A DNA stretch of 64,000 nt from an uncultured Synechococcus sp. (GCA_964481635.1 CAYZTU010000001.1:149669-213668), one strand, 5' to 3'; positions 3,109-45,001 are shown, numbered from the stretch's first letter. A program made the numbers and translations. Notes: generated by a model not told the origin, from the sequence alone.

Positions 3109-3222
3109 TCCTATCCGATTTGCAAACAAAAATTCAGAAGAACCATACACCGCAGGTGCTTCTCTGACGGGGGCTGCGCCCCTGCGACCGCCGTTCTAAA
3201 TTCACTTAGGATTGCTATATGG
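3109..3222. repeat. MITE-like repeat copy R1. TIR is TATAGCAATCC ... GGATTGCTATA, with an internal GGGGGC-TGC-GCCCC hairpin.
   Basis: Terminal inverted repeats are visible in the sequence. The right TIR supplies the TAG stop of the histidine kinase gene (CTA at 3215-3217 on the plus strand). Confidence 0.7.
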
Positions 3223-7462: not shown

Positions 7463-7494
7463 TGTCAAAATTGTCAAGAATTTCTATAGCAATC

Positions 7495-7606
7495 CTAGAT
7501 GAATTTAGAACAGCGGTCGCAGGGGCGCAGCCCCCGTCTTTGGTTCTATAGCTATGCCACGCAAGCTATCAGAATCTTTGTTCGGCAATCAGATAGTATT
7601 GCTATA
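7495..7606. repeat. MITE-like repeat copy R3b (TATAGCAATCC ... GCGGTCGCAGGGGCGCAGCCCCCGTC ... GTATTGCTATAG).
   Basis: Full TIRs plus the core. Contains the cacgcaagctatc sub-motif shared with copies R4 and R7. Confidence 0.7.
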
Positions 7607-22293: not shown

Positions 22294-23637
22294 ATGACCG
22301 CATGGTTGGCTTGGTGGGGGAACCAATGGCGCACACTCACCCTGTGGTGGCGGAGTTTGGTGCAGGTGGTGGCCGATTTGCGCCTAGCGATTGGCCTGCT
22401 GTTGGTGATTGCGGTGGCGAGTATTGCCGGTACGGTGATTGAGCAGGGAGAAACCCTAACGTTTTACCGGGAAAATTATCCAGAACATCCGGCATTATTT
22501 GGATTTTTAACTTGGCAGGTCATTCTTTTTTTAGGATTCAATCAGGTCTATCAAACCTGGTGGTATTTGAGTTTATTAATTTTATTTGGGGCGAGTTTGT
22601 TGGCCTGTACGTCTCGGCGGCAATGGCCTGCCTTGAAAGTTGCCCGTAAGTGGTACTATCACCAGCGACCGGAGCAAATTTTGCGATTGAATTTAAGTCA
22701 AGTCTGCCCGGAAATTTCTATTTCTCAGTTGGCATCTATTTTGCGTCAAAAGGGATATTGGGTGGCTACGGAAAAGGAGAAACTTTATGCCCGTAAAGGG
22801 TTGGCGGGCAAAATTGGCCCGATTGTTGTTCATGCCAGTCTGGTGGTAATTTTAATCGGGGGTTTGGTCGGAGCACTAACCGGTTTTTTGGCTCAAGAAT
22901 TAGTCCCGAGTGGGCAGGATTTTCAACTCAAGAAAGTGATTGAAGCCGGGGCATGGGTGCGGCGTTTACCGCCAGTGCAGGGGCGGGTACATCGGTTTTG
23001 GATTGACTATACAGCGGGGGGAGAGATTGACCAGTTTTACACCGATTTGGGATTGTTAAATGCTGCCGGAGAAGAAGTGACCCGCAAGACCATTCATGTG
23101 AATGAACCTTTGCGGTGGCGGGGGTTGACTTTTTACCAAACCAGTTGGGGTATTCAGGGGGTACGATTGCGCTTTAATAATAGCCCAATTTTAGAACTGC
23201 CCGTTACTCCGTTTACAGCGGGGAATGGCCGGAAATTGTGGGGAACCTGGTTACCCCTAAAACCCGATTTAAGCGAGGGGGTATCCTTGGTAATTCCTGA
23301 CCTACAGGGCTTATTTTTGCTCTACGACCAACAGGGACAATTGTTAACCACCAGCCGGGTAGGAACACCGGTACATATTGGGGGGGTGGATTTAACGCTG
23401 ACCGAATTAGTTGGCAGTACGGGTTTACAAATCAAATCTGACCCGGGTGTACCCATTGTATATTTAGGCTTTGCTGGTTTGATGTTGGGTGTGATGATGA
23501 GTTACATCTCCCATAGTCAGGTGTGGGGGTTACAAATAGAAAAACAGTTATATGTTGGGGGTAAAACCAATCGGGCGCAGGTGACTTTTGAACAGGAATT
23601 TCTCAATATCTTGCAACAATTACAAGCCAGAATATAG
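22294..23637 (+). CDS. ccsB: Cytochrome c biogenesis protein Ccs1/ResB (CcsB).
   Basis: ResB-like N-terminal TM region and a large soluble domain. Length and topology are typical of cyanobacterial Ccs1. Confidence 0.8.
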   Translation: MTAWLAWWGNQWRTLTLWWRSLVQVVADLRLAIGLLLVIAVASIAGTVIEQGETLTFYRENYPEHPALFGFLTWQVILFLGFNQVYQTWWYLSLLILFGASLLACTSRRQWPALKVARKWYYHQRPEQILRLNLSQVCPEISISQLASILRQKGYWVATEKEKLYARKGLAGKIGPIVVHASLVVILIGGLVGALTGFLAQELVPSGQDFQLKKVIEAGAWVRRLPPVQGRVHRFWIDYTAGGEIDQFYTDLGLLNAAGEEVTRKTIHVNEPLRWRGLTFYQTSWGIQGVRLRFNNSPILELPVTPFTAGNGRKLWGTWLPLKPDLSEGVSLVIPDLQGLFLLYDQQGQLLTTSRVGTPVHIGGVDLTLTELVGSTGLQIKSDPGVPIVYLGFAGLMLGVMMSYISHSQVWGLQIEKQLYVGGKTNRAQVTFEQEFLNILQQLQARI

Positions 23638-23764
23638 ACTCAAATAATTATTGAAAATTCTCTTTCACCTGCGGCACTTCCCCCCTGTTAGGAAATAAGG
23701 CTATCTCACAAAATAACGAGGTATTCGTTGGATTCTCCTAAAGTAATCATGTAGTGATCTAATT

Positions 23765-23862
23765 AGAATTTTGCATGGCGGTCACATCGCACCGCCCCGC
23801 TCTGGTTCTGGCAGACCTCTTCAATTCTTATGAATCCCATGAGATTGCTATATCAACCCCAA
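23765..23862. repeat. MITE-like repeat copy R5 (GGCGGTCAC...CCGCCCCGCTCTGGTTCTGGCAGA ... GAGATTGCTATA).
   Basis: Core and right TIR. Lies immediately 3' of the doc fragment. Confidence 0.5.
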
Positions 23863-23903
23863 TCAGAGGTAGAGAACAACCTCAAACGCACCGCCAATTG
23901 CCT

Positions 23904-24438
23904 TCAATTTTCCGCTGCATTGGGATTGTTAGCTGGTGCTATATGATGCTGTAGCCACTCCACAAATGCTTCACGTCCCAGTTCACCTGATATGATCGCC
24001 AAGACTACACGCTCTTGTTCATCCACGGAGGCGTTAATTTTCAACCTATTCAGAACTATACCAATCCTACGGCATTCGTGAGAATATAAAAACGCTGAAG
24101 AACCAAAAACGGGGCGGTGCCCTGCGACCCTTTACTGTTTGAACGTAAAAATTATTCTCATGATTCAAGTGTGATTGCTATAGAAAGGTTTCCATTGCCG
24201 CATGACCTGTACGTTTATTTCCATCTACAAATGGATGATTGATGATGATTGAGAACCCTAATGTTGTTGCTTTTTCTAGCAGGTTTGGGTACAGGTCTTG
24301 TCCACCGAATGTCATTCGGGGCTGGGCGATCGCTGATTCTAATAAACCCATATCTCGGATGCCCGATGACCCACCGGATTGTTCAAGAATTTTGCGATGT
24401 AGCTCTAATACCTCAATCATTGTCAAATAGCGAATCAT
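23904..24438 (-). pseudogene. doc: Doc (death-on-curing, Fic/Doc family) toxin gene split by a MITE insertion. N-terminal 86 codons are at 24178-24438 and the C-terminal ~50 codons at 23904-24057.
   Basis: The N fragment carries the Fic motif HPFVDGNKRTGHAAMETFL. The C fragment translates to VLNRLKINASVDEQERVVLAIISGELGREAFVEWLQHH, which continues the Doc consensus. The two are separated by MITE R6, whose CTATAG end supplies an in-frame TAG. Confidence 0.8.
24058..24184. mobile_element. MITE-like repeat copy R6 inserted in doc (TIR TATACCAATCC ... GATTGCTATAG; likely TA or CTA target duplication).
   Basis: Removing the element restores the contiguous Doc reading frame ...METFL-VLNRLKINASVDE... 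Confidence 0.75.
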
Positions 24439-24632
24439 GCTAAACGCCGATATAGTTCACTATTTTTCGCCACTACATAATCGGCGGCATTAATAAAATC
24501 GTCTTTTTGTAGACTTAGCCAATCCTCTAAACTTGCTTTCAAAAGCACTTCAGTCGCAATGCCATGTACTCTTGCTAAATTCTGTAGCCTTTGGAATTGG
24601 CTGTCTGAAAGATCAATTGTGATAGAAGCCAC
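24435..24632 (-). CDS. Putative ribbon-helix-helix-type antitoxin paired with Doc.
   Basis: 65 aa. ITIDLSDSQFQRLQNLARVHGIATEVLLKASLEDWL fits an RHH beta-alpha-alpha fold. Sits upstream of doc in the same orientation with a 4-nt ATGA overlap. Confidence 0.55.
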   Translation of the reverse strand: MASITIDLSDSQFQRLQNLARVHGIATEVLLKASLEDWLSLQKDDFINAADYVVAKNSELYRRLA

Positions 24633-24846
24633 AGCGATTACTCTCCTAGTTTTTCTGCATCAAGTTTAACACTCACGTCCAAATTAATAACCTCATTGTA
24701 CTGTCCCAGACCAAAAGCCAAGCCAGCCAACAATGGTACTAACCTAGAAGGCATGAATATATTCTTCCAAAATTGGTTGGCGGAGATGTTCTTTCACGGC
24801 ATCCAGTGTACCGAGATCGACCGGACGTTGAAGTAAATTTTTTAAA

Positions 24847-24990
24847 TATAGCAATCCCGATTTGCAAACAAAGATTCTGATAGCTTGCGTGTCGCTTTGC
24901 AACATTAGCTTGCGTGTCGCTTTGCGACATTGGCTTGCGTGTCGTAGCCATAGAATCAAGGCGGGGGCAGTGCCCCCGCGACCGCTATTC
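24847..24990. repeat. MITE-like repeat copy R7, containing a 3x tandem ~23-bp sub-repeat (agcttgcgtgtcgctttgc-aca) and a GGGGGC-AGT-GCCCCC hairpin.
   Basis: Left TIR TATAGCAATCC at 24847. Core is in reverse orientation. Abuts an orphan C-terminal gene fragment at 24744-24830. Confidence 0.6.
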
Positions 24991-25096
24991 CCGAATTAAT
25001 AGAGGTTCCCTTTAACTAAAAATTAAGGGAATCTCCCTTGCTCAAATTCTGATGATATACTGATACCGGAGTAACATTTTATTAACAACTCTTCCT

Positions 25097-28000
25097 ATGA
25101 AGTTCATTTCCTCGCTGCGTCATCTGGTTTGGTTTCCCCTGAAGGCGTTAGCGGTGCTGTTTGTCTGTCAGGTGCCGGGGCTGGCATTACCCCAGGGCGG
25201 TCAAGTCACCCAGGGAGCGGCCACGATTCAACAGGTGGGGGATACCAAGCTAAATATCAATCAATCCACTGATAGAGCCGTCATCAACTGGAATAGCTTT
25301 AGCATTGCCCCCCAGGAGTGGGTGAATTTTCAACAACCCAGCAGTACATCAGCGACGTTGAACCGAGTCACTGGAGCTACACCCTCAAGTATTGCGGGCA
25401 GATTAACCGCCAATGGGCAGGTATTTTTGGTAAACCCCAATGGCATTGCGTTTTTACCCACGGCACGGGTGGATGTGGCGGGCTTAGTCGCCAGTACGTT
25501 GAATATCCAAGATACTGACTTCATGCGGGGCGTTTTGCGCTTTGAACAAATGCCAGGGAAACCCCCTGCGAGTGTAGTCAATCAAGGTTTAATTACGGTG
25601 AAAGAAGCGGGTTTTGCGGCCTTGGTTGCTCCCGCCGTGCAGAATAGTGGCATCATTTCCGCTCGCTTGGGTAAGGTCGTTCTGGCATCGGGAACGACGG
25701 TGAGCTTGGATTTCTATGGGGATGGATTATTAAGCGTGACGGTTGACCCCACGTTGGCGGGGCAAATCACGGATATTTATGGGAATAAATTAAATTCGCT
25801 GATTGACAACCAAGGCAATATCACGGCACCGGGGGGGATAGTTACCCTGACGGCTCAGGCGGCTGGTCAGATTGTAGATCATGTGATTAATGTTGGCGGG
25901 ATGATTGAGGCGAAATATGCGGAAAATCGCAATGGCGTAATTGTTCTATCCGGCGGGCAAAAGGTTACGGTTGCGGTAAATGGTGCGTTAGATGTATCGG
26001 GAATTGTATCAGGAGAGAAAGGCGGTAAAGTTACTATCACTGGGGAAAAGATTGCGCTTAATAATGGCACAACCATAGACGCTTCGGGTGATCAAGGCGG
26101 TGGGATTGTCAATATCGGGGGTAGTTTCCAGGGGAAAGGGACGCTACAGAATGCGATAGAAACGACGGTTGCCAAGGATGTCCAAATCAAAGCAGATGCC
26201 CTCACCCAGGGGAATGGGGGGGAAGTGATTGTTTGGGCGGATGGGACGACGAAATTTGAGGGTTTTGTGAGTGCCAAGGGTGGCATTATCACTGGGGATG
26301 GTGGGTTTGTCGAAATATCAGGGAAAGAAGTCTTAAATCTTGCGCCCGGTTGGTCGGGTCGGATTAACTTGAATGCCCCGGCGGGTGTGGCGGGTACTTT
26401 GCTCCTTGACCCCAATGACATTACGATTTCTGGCACAGCCGGAGCGAGTACCATTACCAATCCTGAGAATGCGACCGATTCAGGTAATCAATTATTAGAT
26501 GATGATATTGCGGCATTTTTGGGCGGTAGCAATTTAACGATTCAAACCACGGGCACAGGTGGGGTTGGCACGATCACGATCACTGGCGATGTGAATATCA
26601 CTTGGGGTACATCAAAAACCTTGACCCTCAATGCTGACCGCAATATTGTGATGAACAGTGGTGCAGTGATTCAAAATACCAATGCGGGTGCCACGCCTTT
26701 TGATGCCATAGTCTTTAATGCCAATGGTACGGGTAGCGGTAGTTTTGATGGTATTAAGCTTAACGGCAGTACCTTGGCTACTAATCGAGGCAATATTACC
26801 CTGACGGGGCAGGGCGGTGACACACTGAGCGGCAACCACGGTATCGTTCAACAGTCAGGTGCCCAAGTCAGCACGGTGGATGGCAACATTACCTATACGG
26901 GCAAGGGGGGTAGTAGCTCCGGCGGCGGTAACTTCGGGATTGATTTGAGGGATGCCACCACGAGCATTCGTACCACCGGCACTGGCAACATTACCTTAAC
27001 CGGAATAGGGGGCAGTGGCAGTGATAACAACATCGGCATTAATCAAAGCAGTAATGCCCAAGTCAGCACCATCAATGGCAATATTACCTATACGGGCACG
27101 GGGGGTAGTGGCTCCGACGGTAACTTCGGGATTTCTCTGACTGCTACGAGCATTCGCAGCACCGGCACCGGCAACATTACCTTAACCGGAACAAGCAAAG
27201 GCAATGGAGATGGTAACTCGGGCATCTACCAACAGTCCGCAGCTCAAGTCAGCACGGTGGATGGCAACATTACCTATACAGGCACGGGAGGTAATGGCAT
27301 TGACGATAACTACGGGATTGATTTGGCTGGTACGAACACAAGCATTCGCAGCACCGGCACCGGCAACATTACCTTAACCGGAAAAGGCCAAGGCACTGGA
27401 ACAAATAACTACGGCATCTATCAAATCTTTGATGCCCAAGTCAGCACGGGGGCTGGCAACATCATCTACACCGGCACCGGAGCAGGCACAGCAGATGGCA
27501 TTCGCATTGGCATTATTGGATTTGGCAGTAACGTGATTGGCTCGGCAACTACCACGGGCAATATTAGCCTAACCGCCCTGACCAATGGCCTGACACTCAA
27601 TGATGTTACGGTTCAAACGACTGGGAACCTTACCCTTTCTAGCCCAGGCAACACCAGTCAAAACAGCAGCGGTGGCCTATTCGCCAATGGTTTAGAGCTT
27701 TTAGGAACTGGTTCATTTACCCTTAGCAATGTCAACAACAACATCACCACCCTAGCGGCGGCTACCACCAATGACATTAACTACACGGATGCAAATGGGT
27801 TTGAAATTGGGACGGTGAATACCACCAATGGCGTGAATGTCAGCACAATCAAAAATCTCACCTTGAAAGCCGGTGGAGCAGTTACGCAAACCCAGAAGAT
27901 TACGGCGGGTGGGTTGGAACTCAAGGGAACAGGTAGTTACACCCTCACTAAAAACACCAACAACATCAGTATTTTAGCGGCTAATACTACGAGTAACATC

Positions 28001-31000
28001 AGCTACACGGATACTGATTCCTTCACCGTTGGCACAGTCAATGCTACGAATGGCATTACCAACGATGGAAACTCTACCCTCACAGCGTTGAATAATGGCA
28101 CGATTACCATCAACAAAAACATCACCAACAACGACACAGGCACATCAACCATCACTGTAAATGCTGACAAAAATATCGTAGTTAATTCTGGAGTAGAAAT
28201 CAAAAATACCAGCACAAGTACCACATTTAATGCCATAGTATTTAACGCCAACACCGCCGGTACAGCGACAGGAAACTTCGCAGGGATTACACTGAGTAGT
28301 AATAGTACCTTGAAAACTAATGGTGGTGGTATCAAACTCACGGGCAAGGGCGGAGATACAGGCTCTGATAACTACGGTATTTATCAACTCAATGGAGCGC
28401 AGGTAACTACCGCAAATGGCAATATCACCTATAAAGGCACGGGGGGTAATGGACTTAATTCTAATCATGGTATTAAGTTAGAAGATTCAAATACCCTCAT
28501 CACTACCGGCACGGGTAATATTGAACTGATTGGCACAGGTAATGGCACTGGGAGTACCAACTATGGTATTCAGCAAACGGATAACGCCAAAGTAACTACC
28601 ACCAGTGGCAATATCACCTACACTGGTACAAGTAATGGAACAAGTATAAACAATTTAGGTATCTTTCAGACTACTGGTGCCCAAGTCATCAGTACGGATG
28701 GCAATATCACATTCGATGGTACAGGCGGCAATGGCACAACTGGCAATGACGGCATCTTAATAACAAGTGCTAACACGCTCATCCAAACTACAGGTAAAGG
28801 TGATATCAGCCTCACGGGTACTGGCAAGGGTTCCAACGCTGTGGGAATTGTGCAACAAACATCAGCCAAAGTAGAGACAAATCAGGGCGATATTACTTAC
28901 AAGGGTACGGGGGGCAATACTGGCTCTGATAACTACGGCATTCATCAACTTGCCGGGGCGGAAGTAGTCAGTACAAGTGGCAATATCACCTACAAAGGCA
29001 CGGGGGGTAATGGCACAGAGAATAACTATGGGATTTATTTACTTAATGATGACACCAAAATCAGTTCTAACTCAGGGGCGATTAGTCTCACCGGGATAGG
29101 AAACGGGTCAGGTGATTCTAACAACGGCATTTATCAGAAAAATGGCGCACAGGTGACGACCCAAGGCGGCAACATTACTTACACCGGTACCGGGGGGAGT
29201 GGCACAGATAATAATTACGGTATTTTTCTGAACGGTGCTAACACCAAAATCACCACAACGGGCAATGGCAAAATTGAACTCACTGGCACAAGTAATGGTG
29301 CTGGCAATGATAACTATGGCATTTTTCAACAATCATCAGCGCAGGTGACCACTACTTCGGGCAGTATTAGTTACAGAGGCACGGGGGGTAATGGGACAGA
29401 TAATAACTTTGGTGTTGTTCTGAGTGATGCGAGTACAACAATCAGTTCTGATACCGGGGCAATCTCTATCACCGGCACAGGAAAAGGGTCAGGTGATTCT
29501 AACTACGGCATTTATCAGAAAAATGACGCACAGGTAACTACCGATGGCAACATCACCTACGAAGGCACGGGTGGCAAAGGCACGAATTCAAATTTTGGTA
29601 TTTTGCTGAACGGCACTGGCACCAAAATCACCACAACGGGCAATGGCAAAATTGAACTCACTGGCACAAGTAATGGTGCTGGCAATGATAACTATGGCAT
29701 TTTTCAACAATCATCAGCGCAGGTGACCACTACTTCGGGCAGTATTAGTTACAGAGGCACGGGGGGTAATGGGACAGATAATAACTTTGGTGTTGTTCTG
29801 AGTGATGCGAGTACAACAATCAGTTCTGATACCGGGGCAATCTCTATCACCGGTACAGGAAAAGGGTCAGGTGATTCTAACTACGGCATTTATCAGAAAA
29901 ATGGCGCACAGGTGACGACCCAAGGCGGCAACATTACTTACACCGGTACCGGGGGGAGTGGCACAGATAATAATTACGGTATTTTTCTGAACGGTGCTAA
30001 CACCAAAATCAGCACTACTGGTACAGGCACTATCAACCTGACTGGTACAGCTCAGGGCACAGGTACTGGCATCATAGGCATTAGGCAACAATCGTCAGCG
30101 CAGGTGAGCAGTGTAGATGGCAATATCACCTACCAAGGCACGGGTGGCAACGGCACAAACTTTAACTATGGGATTTTGCTCTTAGATACAAACACCACTA
30201 CTAGCAGTACGGGGAAAGGCACTATCAACCTGACTGGTACAGGTCAGGGCACAGGTAGCAGCAACTTTGGCATTTATCAACTCAATGGCTCAAAAGTAAC
30301 CACCACCGATGGCAATATCATCTACCAAGGCACGGGTGGCGATGGCACAAACTTTAACTATGGGATTTTGCTCTTAGATACAAACACCACTACTAGCAGT
30401 ACGGGGAAAGGCACTATCAACCTGACTGGTACAGGTCAGGGCACAGGTAGCAGCAACTTTGGCATTTATCAACTCAATGGCGCACAAGTCAGCACCGATG
30501 ATGGCAATATCACCTACCAAGGCACGGGTGGCAATGGCACAAACTTTAACTATGGGATTTATTTGCAATCTGTCAACACCAAAATCAGCACTACCGGTAC
30601 AGGGGCGATTAATCTCACAGGTACTGGTAAAGGTTCAGGTAATGATAATTACGGTATCGCCCAATTAGGTGGACCACAGGTAACTACCACCGGTGGTAAT
30701 ATCACCTACATTGGCACGGGGGGAAATGGCACAAGCTTTAACTATGGTATTTTATTGCAGGATACTATTACCACCCTTAGCACCTCTGGTACTGGCAATA
30801 TCAACCTCACCGGCACAGGAAATGGCACTGGTAATTTTAATTATGGTATCGTGCAACAGTCTGGAGCGCAGGTAAATACCACGAAGGGAAACATCAGCTA
30901 CACAGGTACAGGCAATGGCACTGGTGCTAGTAATTTTGGTATCTACCAATTCAATGGAGCGCAGGTAAATACCACCGATGGCAATATCACCTACACCGGC

Positions 31001-32131
31001 ACGGGGGGTAAAGGTGCGGATTCAATACACACCAAAACTGGCACAAACCTAATCGGCAATAACACCACCGGTCAAATTACTTTTACTTCCACAAATAATG
31101 GCATTACTTTCAATGAACTCAAAGTAGAGACTAAGGGTAATATCATCATCACTTCCCCTGGCGATGTCAATCAGAATAACAAGGGCGGACTATTTTCTAA
31201 GGGTTTGGAATTATTAGGTGATGGCAAATTTACGCTAACAAATACAAACAATAACATCGCCATATTAGCGGCCAAGACCAATAATGAAATTCGCTATACT
31301 GATACGAGTGGGTTTGATATAGGCACTGTTAATACCATCAATGGCATCAGCACTACTGGAATTGTGGTTCTCACTGGGAATGGCACCATCACCCAAACCC
31401 AACCCATTACCACCCCAGGCTTAGCCATTTTGGGTTCTGGTGGTGCCACTTTAACTAACACCAACAATCAAATTAGTACCATTGCCGCCGATACCAGTGG
31501 GAACCTGAAAGTAATTACCCAAGGGGATTTAACGGTGGGTGTAGTCAACCCCGATGGCATTGAAAATGCGGCTAGTGTATTTCTGCAAAGCCTCACGGGA
31601 GATATTATTCTTGATGAATCTATCAATGTCACTGGTGGCATTACCCTAGTTGCAGGTAGAGATTTCATCAACAAGGTGGGTGCAGGTGCCTTAAATCTTG
31701 AAGATGGAAGATTTTTAGTTTATGCCACTAGCCCTGAGCCCACGGGAAATTTCCAAGGCTTCTCCGTCCTGAAAGGTTCTCAGCAATTTAATACCACATT
31801 CCCCCAACCCGCTCTGTTCGCAGGCAGTGGCTTTTTGTATAAAGGTTTAGCACCTATTATTCCTGGATTGCCAAGTAGTTCAGTATTCACAGAACCCGTT
31901 ACATTTGTGCTTAATTTCAATGACCGGCAGTGGCGGGATTTAACGGATTTGGGTGAAGCAGTGTTCTTCCCCGAAGCCCTATTGTGCGTGAATGTCCCCG
32001 TGAATCAAACGACGGGTTCACCGCCTTTGACTGACCCCATCATTCTGAGAAGTGAAAATCTACCTGATCTCAATATCCAATGGCAAACAGGTGAACTGCC
32101 TGAGTGTTCTTCCCCAATCGTTGCCGAATAG
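25097..32131 (+). CDS. Two-partner-secretion exoprotein (TpsA; filamentous-haemagglutinin-like). N-terminal signal peptide and TPS domain, followed by about 1400 aa of Gly/Thr/Asn-rich ~38-aa repeats.
   Basis: Conserved TPS motif NPNGIAF. Repeat unit resembles GNITYTGTGGNGTDNNYGI. Near-perfect internal DNA duplications at 29252-29520 = 29622-29890, 29140-29250 = 29890-30000, and 30130-30290 = 30320-30480. Confidence 0.85.
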   Translation: MKFISSLRHLVWFPLKALAVLFVCQVPGLALPQGGQVTQGAATIQQVGDTKLNINQSTDRAVINWNSFSIAPQEWVNFQQPSSTSATLNRVTGATPSSIAGRLTANGQVFLVNPNGIAFLPTARVDVAGLVASTLNIQDTDFMRGVLRFEQMPGKPPASVVNQGLITVKEAGFAALVAPAVQNSGIISARLGKVVLASGTTVSLDFYGDGLLSVTVDPTLAGQITDIYGNKLNSLIDNQGNITAPGGIVTLTAQAAGQIVDHVINVGGMIEAKYAENRNGVIVLSGGQKVTVAVNGALDVSGIVSGEKGGKVTITGEKIALNNGTTIDASGDQGGGIVNIGGSFQGKGTLQNAIETTVAKDVQIKADALTQGNGGEVIVWADGTTKFEGFVSAKGGIITGDGGFVEISGKEVLNLAPGWSGRINLNAPAGVAGTLLLDPNDITISGTAGASTITNPENATDSGNQLLDDDIAAFLGGSNLTIQTTGTGGVGTITITGDVNITWGTSKTLTLNADRNIVMNSGAVIQNTNAGATPFDAIVFNANGTGSGSFDGIKLNGSTLATNRGNITLTGQGGDTLSGNHGIVQQSGAQVSTVDGNITYTGKGGSSSGGGNFGIDLRDATTSIRTTGTGNITLTGIGGSGSDNNIGINQSSNAQVSTINGNITYTGTGGSGSDGNFGISLTATSIRSTGTGNITLTGTSKGNGDGNSGIYQQSAAQVSTVDGNITYTGTGGNGIDDNYGIDLAGTNTSIRSTGTGNITLTGKGQGTGTNNYGIYQIFDAQVSTGAGNIIYTGTGAGTADGIRIGIIGFGSNVIGSATTTGNISLTALTNGLTLNDVTVQTTGNLTLSSPGNTSQNSSGGLFANGLELLGTGSFTLSNVNNNITTLAAATTNDINYTDANGFEIGTVNTTNGVNVSTIKNLTLKAGGAVTQTQKITAGGLELKGTGSYTLTKNTNNISILAANTTSNISYTDTDSFTVGTVNATNGITNDGNSTLTALNNGTITINKNITNNDTGTSTITVNADKNIVVNSGVEIKNTSTSTTFNAIVFNANTAGTATGNFAGITLSSNSTLKTNGGGIKLTGKGGDTGSDNYGIYQLNGAQVTTANGNITYKGTGGNGLNSNHGIKLEDSNTLITTGTGNIELIGTGNGTGSTNYGIQQTDNAKVTTTSGNITYTGTSNGTSINNLGIFQTTGAQVISTDGNITFDGTGGNGTTGNDGILITSANTLIQTTGKGDISLTGTGKGSNAVGIVQQTSAKVETNQGDITYKGTGGNTGSDNYGIHQLAGAEVVSTSGNITYKGTGGNGTENNYGIYLLNDDTKISSNSGAISLTGIGNGSGDSNNGIYQKNGAQVTTQGGNITYTGTGGSGTDNNYGIFLNGANTKITTTGNGKIELTGTSNGAGNDNYGIFQQSSAQVTTTSGSISYRGTGGNGTDNNFGVVLSDASTTISSDTGAISITGTGKGSGDSNYGIYQKNDAQVTTDGNITYEGTGGKGTNSNFGILLNGTGTKITTTGNGKIELTGTSNGAGNDNYGIFQQSSAQVTTTSGSISYRGTGGNGTDNNFGVVLSDASTTISSDTGAISITGTGKGSGDSNYGIYQKNGAQVTTQGGNITYTGTGGSGTDNNYGIFLNGANTKISTTGTGTINLTGTAQGTGTGIIGIRQQSSAQVSSVDGNITYQGTGGNGTNFNYGILLLDTNTTTSSTGKGTINLTGTGQGTGSSNFGIYQLNGSKVTTTDGNIIYQGTGGDGTNFNYGILLLDTNTTTSSTGKGTINLTGTGQGTGSSNFGIYQLNGAQVSTDDGNITYQGTGGNGTNFNYGIYLQSVNTKISTTGTGAINLTGTGKGSGNDNYGIAQLGGPQVTTTGGNITYIGTGGNGTSFNYGILLQDTITTLSTSGTGNINLTGTGNGTGNFNYGIVQQSGAQVNTTKGNISYTGTGNGTGASNFGIYQFNGAQVNTTDGNITYTGTGGKGADSIHTKTGTNLIGNNTTGQITFTSTNNGITFNELKVETKGNIIITSPGDVNQNNKGGLFSKGLELLGDGKFTLTNTNNNIAILAAKTNNEIRYTDTSGFDIGTVNTINGISTTGIVVLTGNGTITQTQPITTPGLAILGSGGATLTNTNNQISTIAADTSGNLKVITQGDLTVGVVNPDGIENAASVFLQSLTGDIILDESINVTGGITLVAGRDFINKVGAGALNLEDGRFLVYATSPEPTGNFQGFSVLKGSQQFNTTFPQPALFAGSGFLYKGLAPIIPGLPSSSVFTEPVTFVLNFNDRQWRDLTDLGEAVFFPEALLCVNVPVNQTTGSPPLTDPIILRSENLPDLNIQWQTGELPECSSPIVAE
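26800..31050 (+). repeat. Intragenic tandem repeat array (~114-bp units) inside tpsA, with recent near-perfect duplications of 110-270 bp.
   Basis: Identical 74-aa shadow ORFs at 29108-29332 and 29867-30091. Long identical DNA stretches are visible directly. Confidence 0.8.
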
Positions 32132-32270
32132 TCGTATGTTTCTGGGAAACTGTATTAGATGCCCAGATTCTGAAGAACCCCAGAGACTACTTGCTATTTT
32201 CTTGGGCAAATTTGTTGCATACATCAATCTCTTCGAGATAATCTAACAAAGTGAGGAGTATGGAGTTAAT

Positions 32271-33959
32271 TTGATGAAAATCCTGTTCTGCGGCTTGATT
32301 GTCTTGGGAGTTATGGAAATTCAGGCTAATGCTTTAGCCCAGGTCGGACCCATTGACCCTAGCCGGATTCAACAGGAGTTGCAACCCCCTCAGGTGCCCA
32401 CCCGCCCCGAAGAAATTACCATTCCCCGTCGGGATGAACCCACCGCCCCCCCCGGCGCAGAAAATGTGCGCTTCATTTTGAAAACGTTGGACATTCAAGG
32501 GGTAACCGCCTTCACCCCGGAGCAACTACAACTTCTTTACCAAGCCAACATCAATACAGAAATTTCCCTCGCAGAATTGTATATTATTGCCGACCAATTA
32601 AATAATCTTTATCGTCAGGGAGGCTACATTTTAACCCGGGTCTTAGTGCCGGAACAAACCATCCAACAGGGTGTGGCTCGCATCGAGGTGGTAGAAGGCT
32701 TTGTGGAGGCGGTAAAGTTCGTCGGTACGACCCCGGCGCAGGAGAACAGGTTGCGGGGTTTTGGGGAGTGGATTCAACGCTCTCGTCCCCTCAAATCCTC
32801 TGCCCTGGAACGGAATCTATTATTGATGAATGATTTGGCGGGTTATGAGGTGCGGGCGAGGCTTGACCCTGGCCAGGAAGTCGGGGGCAGTGTGTTAACT
32901 TTAGAACTAATCTATGACCCATTTGACCCATTTTTTGAAGTGAATAATTGGGCACCCGATTCCGTGGGGCCAGTGCGATTGCAAGGGGGGGTATTTTTGA
33001 ATTCCTTGGGCAATCAGGGGGAACGGTTTAGTTTGAGTGCCGCCACCACACCTTTTGATTTTGAAGAATTAGCTAGTGGCCGGTTTGACTTCCAAATTCC
33101 CATCGGTTTTGACGGGGTGACCTTGGCCACCAGTGCCAGCTACACGGGCACCCAACCGGGGGCGGAAGTTGCGCCATTTCTGGTGACGGGGGAAAGTTTT
33201 AACTTTAATCTCGGCTTGAGTTATCCCCTGATTCGTTCCCGGCAATTAAATCTATCCTTAAATGGCTTATTTGATTTAACCAATAGCACGGTTGCCACCC
33301 GTTTTTTGGGGTTTCCCATTGTTCTCAGCCAAGACCGGATTCGTTCGTTGCGGGTGGGGGCGACCGTGGACAATATCAATGCCGTGGGGTTTACTTCCGC
33401 TTCGATTTTGCTCTCCCAGGGGTTGAGCGGTTTGGGGGCACGGTTGGAGGGCAGTGAAGGGGCACCCCTCTCCCGGGCGAATGGTCAGGCAACGGGGTTC
33501 AAGGTGAACTTGAATTTTGCCCAGTTGTTCACCCTACCCCAGCAATTTAATCTTTTGCTAACGGGAGCGGGGCAGGTGGCCAGTACCTCCTTGCTGGTAT
33601 CGGAGCAGTTTGGCTTGGGTGGACCCAGTTTTGGATCGGCCTACAACCCTTCCCAATTGTTGGGGGATGATGGCTACGGGTTGCGCCTAGAATTGCAACG
33701 GCCAGTGAATTATCGCGCCGGGACGACGCCGATGGTCAGCCAGCCCTATGCCTTTGTGGATTATGGACAGGTGTTTTTGAAACAACCCACGGCGGCGGAG
33801 CCGGGGAATCGGGAGTTGGCTTCCGCAGGGTTAGGACTGCGCCAATTTATTAGTAATTATCTGCAAATGCGTTTGGAATTAGCCTTTCCTTTGAGTAAAT
33901 TTGTGCCCCAGTTTGAGCAAACCCCCCGATTATTATTTAGCGTTCAGGGAGTGTTTTAG
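32271..33959 (+). CDS. TpsB outer-membrane transporter (ShlB/FhaC/HecB family haemolysin activation/secretion protein with POTRA domains).
   Basis: Signal peptide, a POTRA-like N-terminal region, and a C-terminal beta-barrel ending in a terminal F. Positioned immediately downstream of tpsA. Confidence 0.8.
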   Translation: MMKILFCGLIVLGVMEIQANALAQVGPIDPSRIQQELQPPQVPTRPEEITIPRRDEPTAPPGAENVRFILKTLDIQGVTAFTPEQLQLLYQANINTEISLAELYIIADQLNNLYRQGGYILTRVLVPEQTIQQGVARIEVVEGFVEAVKFVGTTPAQENRLRGFGEWIQRSRPLKSSALERNLLLMNDLAGYEVRARLDPGQEVGGSVLTLELIYDPFDPFFEVNNWAPDSVGPVRLQGGVFLNSLGNQGERFSLSAATTPFDFEELASGRFDFQIPIGFDGVTLATSASYTGTQPGAEVAPFLVTGESFNFNLGLSYPLIRSRQLNLSLNGLFDLTNSTVATRFLGFPIVLSQDRIRSLRVGATVDNINAVGFTSASILLSQGLSGLGARLEGSEGAPLSRANGQATGFKVNLNFAQLFTLPQQFNLLLTGAGQVASTSLLVSEQFGLGGPSFGSAYNPSQLLGDDGYGLRLELQRPVNYRAGTTPMVSQPYAFVDYGQVFLKQPTAAEPGNRELASAGLGLRQFISNYLQMRLELAFPLSKFVPQFEQTPRLLFSVQGVF

Positions 33960-33961
33960 GA

Positions 33962-34080
33962 TACCGCTATTGATTAGCTACACCACACCAGCCAACAAAA
34001 TAAGCGGTCGCAGGGGCATAACCACCGTCTCTGGTTCTCGTTAACTTTGATGATTCTCGTAAATCATCTGTGATTGCTAG
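33962..34080. repeat. MITE-like repeat copy R8 (AAGCGGTCGCAGGGGCATAACCACCGTCTCTGGTTCT ... GTGATTGCTAG).
   Basis: Core and right TIR. Sits directly next to the left end of the IS605-family element. Confidence 0.55.
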
Positions 34081-34094
34081 TTTAAGTATTTTTT

Positions 34095-35697
34095 ATAGAA
34101 TATGAGCGGAAAACCCGGCTGCTTGCGGCGGGGATGGATAGCGAATCAACAAACAGCGCGCGTAGCGCATCCTTACAAAATAAATGCTATAATGTAAGGT
34201 ATGACAGAACGTGCTTTCAAGTTCCGCTTCTACCCAACTCCTGAGCAAGAAACCTTGCTTAGAAGGACGCTTGGCTGTGTAAGGCTGGTGTATAACCGTG
34301 CCCTCGCAGCCAGAACAGAGGCTTGGTATCAGCGTCAAGAGCGAATTGGGTTTGACATACTCCACCGCCCTAAAGGGCAGGGATTCTAAACCTCACGATT
34401 TAGATTTCTGCTTCTTTCTCTTTCGAGCCTTTCGCAACTGCCTCTACTCTCAAGGAGTTTTGGTCTTATGTTCGCTCCACAGACTTCAAGCTATTCCCCG
34501 CTTTCCCGGATGCCCCTCGGTATGGGGTTGGAAAAACTTGTTTTTTGTTTTCCCGATGTAATTCTAACAAAGTTTTTGTAAAGCCGCCCTGAAAGGGCGG
34601 GGTTTTAGACCCAGTTTTTTGATAACCAATCGTCCGCAATGCTGACCGAGTGGAAGCGGGATGAGGGGCTGAGTTTTCTGAGCGAGGTAAGCTCTGTCCC
34701 TCTCCAACAAGGATTGAGGCATCTGCAAACCGCATTCAGCAACTTCTGGGCAGGCAGAGCGCAATATCCCAACTTCAAAAAGAAGCGGAACGGGGGTTCT
34801 GCTGAGTTCACCAAGTCGGCATTCAAGTTTAGAGATGGTCAGGTGTTCCTGGCTAAATGCTCTGAAGCCTTGCCGATTCGTTGGTCTAGGCAGCTTCCTA
34901 AAGGTGCTGAACCCTCTACCATCACAGTCAAGCTGGAGCCATCGGGTCGCTGGACTGTTTCGCTGTTGGTGGATGATCTGACTATTCAACCGCTACCAAA
35001 AACTGACAAAGCGATTGGGATTGATGCCGGAATTACCAGCCTGGTTACAACCAGTGACGGTGAGAAGGTGTCCAACCCTAAACACTTTGCCAAGCTCTAT
35101 CAGAAGTTGAAGAAGGCTCAGAAACGGCTAAGCCGCAAGCAAAAAGGCTCTCGCAATCGGGATAAGGCACGGCGCAAAGTTGCCCGTGTCCATGCCGAGA
35201 TTAGAGACTCTAGACACGATTTCCTGCACAAGTTGACAACGCAATTGGTGAGAGAAAACCAAACCATCGTTGCTGAGTCGCTGGCAGTGAAAAACATGGT
35301 CAAGAATCGGAAGTTGGCAAAGTCGATTTCTGATGCTGGATGGAGCGAAATGAACCGCCAACTGGCCTACAAAGCTGAGTGGTATGGTCGTAACTTTGTC
35401 CAGCTTGACCGATGGTTCCCTGGTTCTAAAACTTGCTCGAAGTGTGGGCATAAAGTTGATTTGCTTCCTCTAAATGTTCGTGAGTGGGATTGTCCTAAAT
35501 GCAATGCTCACCATGACCGGGATGTGAATGCTGCTATAAACCACTTAGCTGCTGGACAGGCAGTGTTAGTCTGTGGAGCGACCGTAAGACCTGAAGAGAG
35601 CAAATCTCGGAAGGCTGGTGCTATGAAACAGAAACCTAAGCCGTGAGTCTTAGGAATCCTCGCTGCTTGCGGCGAGGAGGATGTCAATCGCTGCCAA
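34095..35697 (+). mobile_element. IS200/IS605-family TnpB-only insertion element (IS1341-like). Subterminal hairpins share a GCTGCTTGCGGCG motif, at 34113-34134 on the left end and 35657-35678 on the right end.
   Basis: Imperfect palindromes at both ends flank a tnpB gene. No tnpA is present. The right end abuts the stop codon of the methyltransferase gene. Confidence 0.7.
34201..35646 (+). pseudogene. tnpB: tnpB (RNA-guided endonuclease TnpB/OrfB) interrupted after codon ~58 by a roughly 240-bp insertion (34376-34613) that carries in-frame stops.
   Basis: N fragment begins MTERAFKFRFYPTPEQETLLRRTLGCVRLVYN. C fragment has SEVSSVPLQQ, a RuvC-like D/E/D region and a CxxC...CxxC zinc finger. 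Both fragments are in the same frame. Confidence 0.75.
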
Positions 35698-35698
35698 C

Positions 35699-36436
35699 TC
35701 ACATTTTTTGTGCCATAAACCGTAATCGTACATAATCCACAACCCAGACCCCAGCCGGTTGATAAAGTTGGGGACGCAACCGTGCCACGACCTCAGCGAT
35801 AAAATCGTCCCGTTCCTCTGGCCGTATCCACGCCAGGGAGGACTGGGCAAACATCAGCAACCAATCCCGCAAATCTCCAGGTAAAGGGGTGGGACGCGGG
35901 ATTAGTTCAATGGTGGGCACCCGAAAGCCCTGGGCGGCCAGCAGTTGGCGATAGGTGGTGGGGTCGGGAAAAAAACACGGGTACGGCACGTTCAGTCCCC
36001 GGGCAGCAAAGGTCGTCTCCATGGCCGTGAGGATGGCGGCGATATTGCCCCGCCCCCCAAACTCCCCGACAAAACGGCCACCGGGTTTGAGGGCACGCCA
36101 CACCCCGGCGATCACCGCTGTCGGCTCCAGCATCCAATGCAAGGCCGCATTGGAAAAAACCGCATCAAATTCCTGGTCAAACGCCAGGGCGGTTCCATCC
36201 ATGACCTGGGCGGTCACTCCCCGGGATTGGGCGGCAGCGACCATCTCCGGGCTGGCATCCACACCGAGGACGGTCGCCCCCACTGCCTGGAGTTTCACGG
36301 TTAACGCCCCATCGCCACAGCCCAAATCCAGGATGTGTTCCCCCGGTTGGGGTGCGAGTAAACCCACAACTGCCTCGCCCAAATCGGAGACAAAGCGGGC
36401 GGTTTGGGCGTACTGCTCAGGATTCCAGGTTTGCAC
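35699..36436 (-). CDS. Class I SAM-dependent methyltransferase (trans-aconitate methyltransferase-like).
   Basis: SAM-binding motif ILDLGCGDG and an acidic loop VLGVDASPEM. Confidence 0.8.
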   Translation of the reverse strand: MQTWNPEQYAQTARFVSDLGEAVVGLLAPQPGEHILDLGCGDGALTVKLQAVGATVLGVDASPEMVAAAQSRGVTAQVMDGTALAFDQEFDAVFSNAALHWMLEPTAVIAGVWRALKPGGRFVGEFGGRGNIAAILTAMETTFAARGLNVPYPCFFPDPTTYRQLLAAQGFRVPTIELIPRPTPLPGDLRDWLLMFAQSSLAWIRPEERDDFIAEVVARLRPQLYQPAGVWVVDYVRLRFMAQKM

Positions 36437-40701: not shown

Positions 40702-40755
40702 AGGGTTTAGGCTTACGTTAGGTTTCTTGGTTGTCTGCCCTAGTTGGAGAATTTT

Positions 40756-40850
40756 TATAGCAAAATCATCCAATTAGCGAACAGAAATTGTGAAGAACAG
40801 AAGCGGTATCCCTACAACCTTTGTTCCAAAATCAAGAGGGATTGCTATGG
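40756..40850. repeat. MITE-like repeat copy R9 (TATAGCAAAATC ... GAAGAACAGAAGCGGTATCCC ... GGGATTGCTATGG).
   Basis: TIRs and a partial core. Flanks the 3' end of the coiled-coil gene. Confidence 0.55.
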
Positions 40851-40859
40851 TATCAGCCA

Positions 40860-42608
40860 TCAAGAGTTTCTACGCCTGGGACTAATCAAATGTAAAACAT
40901 AGATAATCAAACCAGCAAAGCCCAACTCTTGATACAAAAAAGTGCGTAGTTGTTTGGATGTACGCTGTCTGCGAAATTCCCGTAGATAACTTTCAAATTG
41001 ACGGATAGCAATCATCTCCTGCTTACATACTTCTAATTGATTGCGTAGAAATCTTGACTCATCTAAAAGTTCGTTAGTTTTCTCTATAATATTATCGGTG
41101 ATTCCCAGTTCATTGAGTTTTTTGGGTATATTCCGAATTGGCTCTAACTCGGAGACAATTTTTTGAACTTGGTCTAAGAGTTTTTGAGTATTGGCTTCGG
41201 TTTGTTGGATGAAATTTTTAACTTGTTCTATTTTCTCCTGTTTAGTGTTTAGCTCAGTAATTGTCTGCTCGGAGAACGCTTTAGCTTGTTGTATCTCTTC
41301 AAGAATGCGTTGCATATCCTGTAAAACGTTCTCTCTGATGCCGAGTTGGTCTAATCTTTGAGGTAGATTCTTGAAATGTTCTAATTCTGAAGTGATTTTC
41401 TGTAGTTCTTGTAATTTCAGTTGAGTATCGGCTTCGGTTTGTTGGATGAAATTCTTGTTTTGCTCTATCCTTTCTTGATTGATTTGCAAATTAGTTAAGG
41501 TCTGTTCGGAAAATGCTTTAGCTTGTTGTACTTCTTCAAGAATACGTTGCATATCCTGTAAAACATTCTCCCTGATACCGAGTTGATCCAACCTTTGGGG
41601 TAAATTCTTGAAATGTTCTAATTCTGCAATGATTTTCTGTAGTTCTTGTAATTTCAGTTGAGTATCAGCTTCGGTTTGTTGGATGAAATTCTTGTTTTGC
41701 TCTATCCTTTCTTGATTGGTTTGCAGATCAGCAATTGTCTGCTCGGAGAACGCTTTAGCTTGTTGTATCTCTTCAAGAATGCGTTGCATATCCTGTAAAA
41801 CGTTCTCTCTGATACCGAGTTGGTCTAACCTTTGGGGTAGATTCTTAAAATATTCTAGTTCTATAATAATTCTCTGTAGCTCTTGCAATTTTAATTGAAT
41901 ATCAGCTTCGGTTTGTTGGATGAAATTCTTGTTTTGCTCTATCCTTTCGTGATTGGTTTGTAGCTCGGTAATTGTCTGCTCAGAAAATGTTTTAGCTTGT
42001 CGCACTTCTCCAAGAATACTTTGCATATCTTGTAAAACATTCTCTCTCATACCAAGTTGGTCTAACCTTTGGGATAGATTCTTAAAATATTCTAGTTCTA
42101 TAATAATTCTCTGTAGCTCTTGCAATTTTAATTGAATATCAGCTTCGGTTTGTTGGATGAAATTTTTGTTTTGCTCTATCTTTTCTTGATTGGTTTGTTG
42201 TTCAGCTAATGTCTGCTCGGAAAATGTTTTAGCTTGCCGTACCTCATCAAGAATGCGTTGTATATCCTGCAAAACATTCTCTTTGATGCCAGATTGGTCT
42301 AGGATGCCAAGTTGATCCAATCTTTGGGGTAAATTCTTGAAAGACTCTAATTCCGATAGAGTTTCGTCTAAGTCTGTTTTTGTTTTTTGTAATAGCTGTT
42401 TATTCAGTTCTAAATCTTGTGAAACAATTTCAATTCGTCGAATAAGTTCACTGACTTCATCAATTTGTTGTGCTTTTTGCAAAACTTCATCAATTTGTTG
42501 TGCTTTTTGCAAGAATTTACTCGCTTTTTCAAGAGCTTCATTAACTTTCTGACAGAGTAATTCTAAGTCCCTTGCAACTTCCAAATCAGTTTTGCTGTTG
42601 TAATCCAT
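40860..42608 (-). CDS. Tail-anchored coiled-coil protein built from about six near-identical 79-aa tandem repeats, with a single C-terminal TM helix.
   Basis: Repeat unit FKNLPQRLDQLGIRENVLQDMQRILEEIQQAKAFSEQTI.ELQTNQERIEQNKNFIQQTEADTQLKLQELQKI..ELE. C-terminal LYQELGFAGLIIYVLHLISPRRR. AT-rich. No match to any family I recognise. Confidence 0.7.
   Translation of the reverse strand: MDYNSKTDLEVARDLELLCQKVNEALEKASKFLQKAQQIDEVLQKAQQIDEVSELIRRIEIVSQDLELNKQLLQKTKTDLDETLSELESFKNLPQRLDQLGILDQSGIKENVLQDIQRILDEVRQAKTFSEQTLAEQQTNQEKIEQNKNFIQQTEADIQLKLQELQRIIIELEYFKNLSQRLDQLGMRENVLQDMQSILGEVRQAKTFSEQTITELQTNHERIEQNKNFIQQTEADIQLKLQELQRIIIELEYFKNLPQRLDQLGIRENVLQDMQRILEEIQQAKAFSEQTIADLQTNQERIEQNKNFIQQTEADTQLKLQELQKIIAELEHFKNLPQRLDQLGIRENVLQDMQRILEEVQQAKAFSEQTLTNLQINQERIEQNKNFIQQTEADTQLKLQELQKITSELEHFKNLPQRLDQLGIRENVLQDMQRILEEIQQAKAFSEQTITELNTKQEKIEQVKNFIQQTEANTQKLLDQVQKIVSELEPIRNIPKKLNELGITDNIIEKTNELLDESRFLRNQLEVCKQEMIAIRQFESYLREFRRQRTSKQLRTFLYQELGFAGLIIYVLHLISPRRRNS
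41050..42300 (-). repeat. About 237-bp tandem repeats (~6 units, above 90% identity) encoding the coiled-coil modules.
   Basis: Near-identical shadow ORFs at 41716-41898 and 41953-42135. The periodicity is visible in the DNA. Confidence 0.8.
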
Positions 42609-42617
42609 AATTAGACC

Positions 42618-44948: not shown

Positions 44949-45001
44949 AGGTTACATAACTTAAAATTTGGATGCCCTCATATTTTTACAATACAACTTT
45001 T

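Follow-up and report, generated by a model that had tools for sequence, protein, structure and literature searches.

A Gloeomargarita-lineage two-partner secretion locus that probably exports an anchored beta-solenoid surface adhesin

Introduction

The adhesins exported by two-partner secretion (TPS, or type Vb secretion) systems are well understood in pathogens and almost unstudied in cyanobacteria. Here we describe a tpsA-tpsB locus at positions 25,097 to 33,959 of a 64,000-nucleotide stretch of DNA from an uncultured Synechococcus sp. (GCA_964481635.1 CAYZTU010000001.1:149669-213668), the whole of which is referred to below as the window. In HMW1 of Haemophilus influenzae and in HxuA, which are secreted by HMW1B and HxuB, a C-terminal disulfide loop locks the exoprotein inside its TpsB transporter's pore (PMC5422565). 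The last 66 residues of HxuA are invisible in the crystal, and an anchor of this kind is present in some TpsA proteins and absent in others (PMC5422565). On the transporter side, the L6 Arg-Asp salt bridge is conserved in all Omp85 structures, and the L6 motif is essential in FhaC (PMC5422565). In the CdrA/CdrB system of Pseudomonas aeruginosa, CdrA is held in the TpsB pore by a cysteine hook and the number of its stalk repeats varies between strains. EtpA of enterotoxigenic Escherichia coli is released and is glycosylated by EtpC. The etp genes lie in the order etpBAC.

The window locus resembles these systems in different respects. Its TpsA has a TPS domain of the same subfamily as those of HMW1 and HxuA, the gene order is A-then-B as in hmw1ABC, and a C-terminal cysteine pair lies in a poorly modeled tail, which recalls the disulfide-loop anchors of the two proteins. 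Unlike HMW1 and HxuA, the tail shows no sequence similarity to theirs and its loop would be longer, at 40 residues, a 32-residue unit that belongs to no curated family makes up the stalk, and the host is a free-living cyanobacterium; moreover, unlike the hmw1 locus, no HMW1C-type (GT41-like) glycosyltransferase was found among the open reading frames (ORFs) scanned across the 64-kb window. EtpA is the best match to the N-terminal 520 residues of TpsA, and the two would both be long beta-helical repeat adhesins, whereas the repeats of EtpA are of another type, EtpA is not retained on the cell, and the etp gene order differs. With CdrA/CdrB, the window locus shares the A-then-B order, a conserved N-terminus, a repeat stalk of variable copy number and a conserved C-terminal cysteine anchor, which in TpsA is a candidate one. 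An RWLVY-type motif at the end of the TpsA helix is also common to MBG-containing relatives. Unlike CdrA, no segment of TpsA matched MBG_2, YDG or Glug in Pfam (more distant homologs carry these domains), and TpsA has no LapG TAAG site and no evidence of control by cyclic di-GMP. Finally, CdiA/CdiB likewise pairs a TPS exoprotein whose extreme C-terminus is variable with an Omp85-family transporter.

We consider it likely that tpsA and tpsB, from a cyanobacterium of the Gloeomargarita lineage, constitute a type Vb secretion system that exports an anchored beta-solenoid surface adhesin. We favor an anchored adhesin because HMW1, HxuA and CdrA are matched in the TPS subfamily, in the A-then-B gene order, in the stalk of repeats and in the two invariant cysteines of a tail that models as unstructured.

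Results

The sequence-only reading of the window had proposed a 2344-residue TpsA with a canonical TPS domain and a tpsB gene 3' of it, and both ORFs are present as described (Table 1). TpsA is rich in glycine (17%), threonine (16%) and asparagine (11%), and its closest relatives are TpsA proteins of the Gloeomargaritales, which range from 1391 to 3246 residues. A scan of the whole protein against Pfam and NCBIfam gave no matches, probably because this compositional bias suppresses the score. When residues 1-320 were scanned alone, PF05860 matched residues 31-296 (E=8.9e-37; 127.8 bits, where the cut-off is 33.5) and TIGR01901 (adhes_NPXG) was also found (E=3e-24), with the NPNGI motif of the domain at residue 113. 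The proposed TPS domain is thus recognized by both hidden Markov models (HMMs). The practical lesson is that full-length HMM scans overlook the TPS domain in compositionally biased proteins of this kind.

Among solved structures, the best match to the N-terminal 520 residues was EtpA (8vba; E=1.6e-73 over residues 18-523), and the EtpA-like region extends past the TPS domain to about residue 523 (nucleotide 26665). HMW1 (2odl; 9e-42) and HxuA (4i84, 1e-31; 4rm6, 8e-30) also matched, and neither FHA nor CdiA chains were among the five solved-structure matches. By its sequence, the TPS domain of TpsA is assigned to the adhesin/binding-protein branch, that is, the EtpA/HMW1/HxuA subfamily.

The C-terminus combines a predicted beta-helix with a poorly modeled tail. 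In an AlphaFold2 model of residues 1960-2344, a beta-helix is predicted with confidence as far as about residue 2210, with a predicted local distance difference test (pLDDT) score of ~76-98 in 10-residue blocks; after the motif RFLVYATSP, pLDDT is ~30 over the last ~130 residues. An RWLVY-type motif occurs within the last 260 residues of 15 of the 120 best homologs, and the terminal beta-helix module gave a sub-threshold match to DUF5649 (E=0.4). The tail holds C2297 (nucleotides 31985-31987) and C2337 (nucleotides 32105-32107), the only two cysteines of mature TpsA; the one other cysteine, C24, lies inside the predicted signal peptide. Both tail cysteines are invariant in two alignments of relatives (A1 and A4, with 7 and 10 sequences), whereas the stretch of 38-50 residues that separates them differs in both sequence and length. 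A C-terminal cysteine pair is present in 9 of 11 Gloeomargaritales-type relatives, at 43-57 and 5-10 residues from the C-terminal end, and in most of these proteins it provides the sole cysteines outside the signal peptide. When 1.84 billion representative proteins were searched exhaustively with HMMER, the full tail was recovered in just ~13, and the other matches have only its first ~55 positions (RWLVY...GFLY) in common; scans of the last 410 residues of TpsA against Pfam and NCBIfam identified no family. Invariant cysteines separated by variable residues are more in keeping with a topological lock than with a binding domain that folds. By analogy with the systems described above, the tail is a candidate disulfide-loop anchor that probably holds the fiber on the cell.

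The interior of TpsA is made up of 38 repeat units anchored on the expression G-x-I-x-[YLFI]-x-[GA], each of 29-34 residues (mean ~32), in two arrays of 9 and 29 units. The earlier count of about 37 copies was close, while the unit length of ~38 residues given with it was too high. Two unit types, GNITYxGTGGNGTxxNYGIxL...TxIxTTG and GxIxLTGTGxGxGxxNYGIxQxxxAQVxTT, mostly alternate to give a 64-residue super-unit, which Tandem Repeats Finder (TRF) detects at a period of 186-192 nt; the consensus of the second array is G-N-I-T-[YL]-T-G-T-G-x4-[DN]-x-N-[YF]-G-I-x-[QL]-x3-A-[QT]-V-x-T-T. The protein is bimodular, with a succession of head, array and tail that occurs twice: a TxTxNADxNIVxNSG head precedes each array, and LELLGxGxFTLxNxNNNIxxLAA-type turns follow each. 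No repeat family in Pfam covers the 32-residue unit, nor does the spacer module at residues 853-1076 have a Pfam match.

For residues 1358-1741, AlphaFold2 was given an alignment of in-register slices from the TpsA array and homologous arrays, and the resulting model (pLDDT 95.7; predicted template modeling score 0.94) has 36 strands in 12 units. In the model, one three-stranded coil of the solenoid is one 32-residue unit, and overall ~1,900 residues of TpsA model as, or resemble, a right-handed beta-solenoid. A Foldseek search with the array model returned solely beta-helix proteins, of which EtpA (8vbb) had the top query TM-score (0.39, at 20% identity; not significant). Searches of the PDB with the array and C-terminal models gave generic beta-helix matches, none of them significant, and no specific domain could be named.

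RTX-like GGxGxD motifs occur eight times in the Gly-rich loops of the 32-residue units against 0.5 expected from shuffles, and TpsA has 77 NX[ST] sequons against 57.5 +/- 6.1, mostly in the GNIT that is conserved at position 2 of the unit. Both enrichments hint at Ca2+ binding or N-glycosylation, but no supporting partner gene or fold match accompanies them. We set aside an RTX-like Ca2+ loop, as the enriched motif has no structural or family support, and likewise HMW1C-like N-glycosylation, an idea of low probability with no transferase in the window and weak sequon enrichment.

The gene that follows tpsA encodes a TpsB protein, as had been proposed, with POTRA_2 and ShlB domains. Pfam detects only one POTRA domain. 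The closest solved TpsB is CdiB (6wim; E=5e-16), which aligns over residues 22-475, and the sequence identifies the protein as a transporter of the POTRA plus 16-strand-barrel family. Orthologs across Gloeomargarita have 561 residues (one has 563, and a 541-residue match looks truncated) and are 74-98% identical. The ratio of nonsynonymous to synonymous substitution rates (dN/dS) of tpsB is 0.09-0.14 against two sister strains and G. lithophora, which shows strong purifying selection and fits a functional transporter. The ~140-bp spacing reported earlier agrees with the 139-142 bp found here, but the accompanying remark that the A-then-B order is less common does not make it remarkable for this subfamily, since hmw1ABC and cdrAB have the same order. 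There is no terminator-like site inside the intergenic region (the nearest weak site on the plus strand, at 32088-32102, is within the 3' end of tpsA), and from this and their adjacency on the same strand, tpsA and tpsB are probably co-transcribed.

The L6 loop of TpsB departs from the usual motif. Its FGSAY aligns with SVRGF of CdiB and with GVRAY/FGRAY of proteobacterial relatives, while the Asp partner motif (LGDDG; F/GxDxG) is kept 8 residues after it. The GSA[YF] variant is found in 46 of the 117 nearest TpsB homologs, including all Gloeomargarita orthologs and many other cyanobacteria, Thermosynechococcus and Thermostichus among them; G-D-x-G is kept in the common L6 variants of the 117. 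Since the variant is shared by so many homologs and tpsB is under purifying selection, the missing arginine is a trait of a cyanobacterial subfamily and not a sign of decay, a natural exception to the L6 motif reported as essential in FhaC.

DNA identity between the units has, over 703 unit pairs, a median of 0.59 and a 90th percentile of 0.67. Recent duplications stand far above this level: identity is at least 0.90 in just 7 of these pairs, all within units 17-26 and 28-31. A diagonal scan showed that 29242-29535 is repeated at 29620-29913 (294 nt, 99.3%, offset 378) and 29098-29252 at 29857-30011 (155 nt, 98.7%, offset 759), with a diverged unit (29546-29644) amid the block. A further duplication is offset by 192, and the three offsets are all multiples of 3. 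The near-perfect duplications pointed out earlier are therefore present, with second coordinates shifted by 2-9 nt and copies longer than first given. Written unit by unit, the first block is [a b c d][a' x c d][a'' b], where the copies of c and of d agree at 100%, those of b at 94%, and x is only 77% like b. A single tandem duplication cannot yield such an order, which calls for two or more events of duplication or gene conversion. Ongoing repeat expansion, which the sequence-only reading had concluded from the duplications, is a reasonable view, but the pattern is mosaic and not a simple tandem expansion, and it is taken from a single assembly.

The relatives used for comparison (P0006 and P0008 of G. 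lithophora, P0011 of VI4D9, and P0001-P0003) are annotated as "two-partner secretion domain-containing protein". The TPS domain is 83-98% identical among the Gloeomargaritales paralogs over residues 61-300, and these proteins also have the 32-residue unit, the LELLG modules, the RWLVYATSP end and the two-cysteine tail, with interiors that are mosaic. A count of the unit by regular expression gives 35 for the window TpsA versus at most 21 in the 30 relatives counted. The comparison with P0003 is informative: identity is 83-97% over residues 1-420, so that the signal peptide and N-terminus are shared, and 65-90% over residues 2161-2344, where the tail is of the same type, versus 30-60% in between, and by the same expression P0003 has only 3 units. 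The relatives, too, contain internal stretches that are repeated exactly, from 48 to at least 100 residues long; P0011 of VI4D9 has many near-identical ~47-residue repeats, and at least 100 residues are repeated exactly within it. Contigs of the two sister strains (L024 and L025) have a P0003-like tpsA tail. The tpsA tail and intergenic DNA of the window are ~77% identical to the sister strains and the adjacent tpsB is 97-98% identical, a step that looks like a sharp, recombination-like boundary. These comparisons suggest that whole interiors have been exchanged between paralogs or alleles while the conserved ends were kept.

The two genes are not always neighbors. VI4D9 (OV696605.1; loci L002, L004 and L005) has three tpsA paralogs of 1713-2937 residues at scattered chromosomal sites, with no tpsB within 10 kb of any of them, and G. 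lithophora (L026, GCA_051860525.1) has an orphan tpsB ~7 kb from resB, with no tpsA within 10 kb. In contrast, tpsA of the window is directly linked to tpsB. Other bacteria are known in which a single TpsB serves several TpsA proteins, and the same arrangement is likely in Gloeomargaritales.

Table 1. Features of the tpsA-tpsB locus in window coordinates
Feature	Position	Strand	Basis or remark
tpsA	25097..32131	+	7,035-nt ORF encoding a 2344-aa TPS exoprotein; ORF and translation
Predicted Sec signal peptide, aa 1-30 (...VPGLA/LPQGG)	25097..25186	+	Hydrophobic N-terminus read from sequence; cleavage site inferred
TPS secretion domain, aa 31-296	25187..25984	+	PF05860 and TIGR01901
First repeat array (aa 565-852; 9 units, each of ~32 aa)	26789..27652	+	Unit map; TRF period 186/192 nt
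Spacer module, aa 853-1076: LELLGxG..TLxNxxNNIxxLAA-type beta-helix turns and head of second module	27653..28324	+	Read from sequence
Second repeat array (aa 1077-1993; 29 units, each of ~32 aa)	28325..31075	+	Unit map; profile of columns
Mosaic duplication block, units 17-26	29098..30011	+	Diagonal scan, unit identity matrix, TRF period 378
Second recent duplication	30116..30560	+	30116-30368 = 30308-30560, 253 nt, 95.3%, offset 192 (one super-unit)
Terminal beta-helix module, aa 1994-2210, ending RFLVYATSP	31076..31726	+	AlphaFold2 model of aa 1960-2344
Tail at the C-terminus (aa 2211-2344), rich in proline and acidic	31727..32131	+	pLDDT ~30; proposed disulfide-loop anchor
tpsA-tpsB intergenic region	32132..32273	+	Gap of 139-142 bp
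tpsB, Omp85-family transporter	32274..33959	+	561 aa from ATG; 562 aa from in-frame TTG at 32271
POTRA_2 of TpsB, aa 68-143	32472..32699	+	Pfam E=5e-18
ShlB barrel of TpsB, aa 217-524	32919..33842	+	Pfam E=7e-27
L6-loop motif FGSAY in place of VRGY/F	33630..33644	+	Ser455 at the Arg position; aligned to CdiB SVRGF

Genes for Doc (Fic/DOC), ResB/Ccs1, an IS605-type TnpB and a methyltransferase were confirmed as neighbors of the locus. The miniature inverted-repeat transposable elements (MITEs) that had been listed with them were not, as there are no MITE-like inverted repeats in 23600-25150 or 33900-35750, and no Rfam families were found within 22-37 kb. An S2-EF-Ts-CobO-CofD-TsaE-ResB block is syntenic in the window, VI4D9 and Synechococcus sp. 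C9, and it ends right after ResB in all three. On the other side, the order tpsB, methyltransferase, Ysc84, PBP2, DUF3685, MurG is kept in the sister strains. The genes that flank the window locus show no synteny with the paralog loci L002-L006. The description of the surroundings as an accessory island is only partly right: synteny with other genera is indeed lost just past ccs1, but the right flank is conserved in the sisters, the MITEs were not found, and the TnpB element is a separate strain-specific insertion.

The Doc toxin gene (Fic/DOC, E=4e-21; 24178-24438, minus strand) lies between ccs1 and tpsA, where synteny ends, and a 65-residue ORF without a Pfam match (24435-24632, minus strand) that is upstream of it and overlaps it presumably encodes the antitoxin. 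The TnpB element is a 1,591-bp insertion (34097-35687) that is absent from the sister contig L025, with an exact junction at L025 2161/2162. Its IS605-family tnpB is split, such that the HTH_OrfB_IS605 N-terminus is a separate 62-residue ORF (34201-34389) and the second part is a 335-residue ORF (34639-35646) with OrfB_IS605 and a Cas12f-like TNB domain. TnpA is absent from the element, which is probably decaying. In G. lithophora (L026 14103-17167), the interval between the orphan tpsB and resB contains a Piwi-domain (prokaryotic Argonaute) gene, a PDDEXK nuclease gene and then a helix-turn-helix (HTH) and M78 peptidase pair, and these genes indicate that the ccs1-adjacent region is a hotspot for accessory and defense genes in the lineage.

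Two other segments of the window are of low GC content. One, a 4.3-kb segment at 40710-45023 (GC 0.38-0.47), is absent from both sisters (L024 and L025) and contains a 582-residue ORF (40860-42608, minus strand) with five tandem 237-nt/79-residue repeats (41082-42329) and a 776-residue helicase-like ORF (42618-44948, minus strand) with weak ResIII and UvrD_C matches; it may be horizontally acquired or a defense island. The other is a 4.3-kb lower-GC segment flanked by a pair of 54-nt inverted repeats (3166-3219 and 7485-7538, 94% complementary), inside which are a gene for a 1111-residue PAS/GAF histidine kinase (3215-6550, minus strand) and a gene for an endonuclease of the Uma2 family (6767-7336), with another Uma2 gene (2508-3092) just outside the left arm.

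Discussion

How might such a fiber be assembled and kept on the cell? In the mechanism that we propose, TpsA would be exported by Sec, after which its TPS domain would dock on the POTRA domains of TpsB and the chain would thread from N- to C-terminus through the barrel, folding outside into a rigid fiber several tens of nm long. The two tail cysteines may then be oxidized in the periplasm to form a ~40-residue loop that is too big for the pore. Because the loop could not pass, the fiber would stay plugged in TpsB and act as a surface adhesin or a matrix-binding stalk, comparable to HMW1, HxuA and CdrA. Both the anchoring step and adhesion itself are inferred by analogy with these proteins.

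Several observations weigh against an anchored adhesin. The sequence of the tail and its 40-residue cysteine spacing have no detectable similarity to HMW1, HxuA or CdrA, and the tail anchor is an analogy, not a homology. The low pLDDT of the tail may merely reflect a shallow alignment (18 sequences). No ligand-binding domain, HMW1C/EtpC-type glycosyltransferase or LapG site was found, and TpsB is without the L6 arginine that the literature calls essential. Furthermore, the exact TpsA is absent from the public protein collection, in which its same-contig neighbors are present, and three independent short-read contigs (L001, L024 and L025) begin in the 3' tail of tpsA. One of these, L001, comes from the Logan assembly of run SRR12989705; it matches the window at 100% identity over 31909-34120 and breaks inside tpsA. 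Owing to the missing protein and the contig breaks, the repeat count and order rest on one assembly.

One alternative is that TpsA is a released exoprotein, such as a component of a matrix or sheath or an S-layer-like fiber, and that the cysteine pair stabilizes a small secreted terminal domain. Many TpsA proteins are released, including EtpA, the best sequence match, and whether an anchor is present differs among TpsA proteins (PMC5422565); a tail that is specific to the lineage and dissimilar to proven anchors would be in keeping with this idea. However, in a mature protein of ~2,300 residues the only two cysteines are invariant and it is the residues between them that change, which suits a topological lock more than a folded domain, and the tail models as unstructured. 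We therefore consider release to be unlikely.

Another possibility, which concerns the repeats and not the anchor, is that the near-perfect duplications, or their number or order, are artefacts in a metagenome-assembled contig. The absence of the exact protein from the public collection, the break of the identical contig L001 inside tpsA and the start of both sister-strain contigs in the tpsA tail are what such artefacts might produce. These contigs, however, break in the non-repetitive tail that is common to the paralogs and not in the array. The reading frame also stays open for 7 kb, with every duplication offset in frame, the copies are not all identical (95-99%), and comparable exact repeats are seen inside the proteins of relatives whose genomes are finished (VI4D9 and G. 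lithophora). Taken together, these points make an artefact quite improbable. The contig breaks also carry a practical lesson, namely that short-read assemblies break within genes of this kind.

The sequence-only reading had left open whether the protein is an adhesin or a contact-dependent effector. The matches to EtpA, HMW1 and HxuA favor the adhesin or surface fiber, and the effector is disfavored. The C-terminal ~300 residues were said to lack a toxin motif, and indeed TpsA contains no VENN, VDNN or xLYN motif, its last 410 residues contain no toxin family in Pfam or NCBIfam, and no immunity-sized ORF follows tpsA, as tpsB comes next; after tpsB, the one ATG-start ORF of at least 40 residues that was found encodes TnpB's N-terminal fragment. 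With no VENN, no toxin domain and no immunity gene, in which it differs from the CdiA systems, a role of the locus in contact-dependent inhibition (CDI) is disfavored. That TpsA delivers a toxin by CDI or otherwise, with the variable ~80 residues after LNFNDRQWRD as a polymorphic effector, might be suggested by tails that fall into at least two sequence types after this conserved motif and diverge much faster than tpsB between sister strains, but it is very improbable given that the variable stretch amounts to just ~40 residues between two invariant cysteines, that no conserved small ORF lies 3' of the VI4D9 paralogs, and that the TPS domain is of the adhesin branch.

An anchored adhesin whose two ends must fit the transporter could be free to change in between. 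The interior of TpsA may evolve when repeat registers of 32, 64 and 126 residues recombine unequally in frame or undergo gene conversion with one another, and also by the exchange of whole modules between paralogs or alleles, while the ends that fit the transporter would stay conserved. We tentatively suggest, as a possibility and no more, that Gloeomargaritales use one transporter for many cargoes: one conserved TpsB without the L6 arginine would export a family of TpsA proteins in which interiors are swapped between unlinked paralogs or alleles, coils expand and contract, and heads and tails stay near-identical.

The locus is a clean and complete example of a TPS system in the Gloeomargarita lineage, whose members live in biofilms and microbialites and are the closest known relatives of plastids. 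It is a fairly ordinary secretion system, and none of its new details overturns current understanding. Mildly new are the uncurated 32-residue solenoid unit, the lineage-restricted two-cysteine tail that fits the disulfide-anchor model, the natural TpsB subfamily without the supposedly essential L6 arginine, and the evidence that interiors are swapped between paralogs or alleles. If one transporter does serve many such cargoes, the length and composition of the fiber would be a rapidly variable surface trait in the cyanobacterial lineage closest to plastids.

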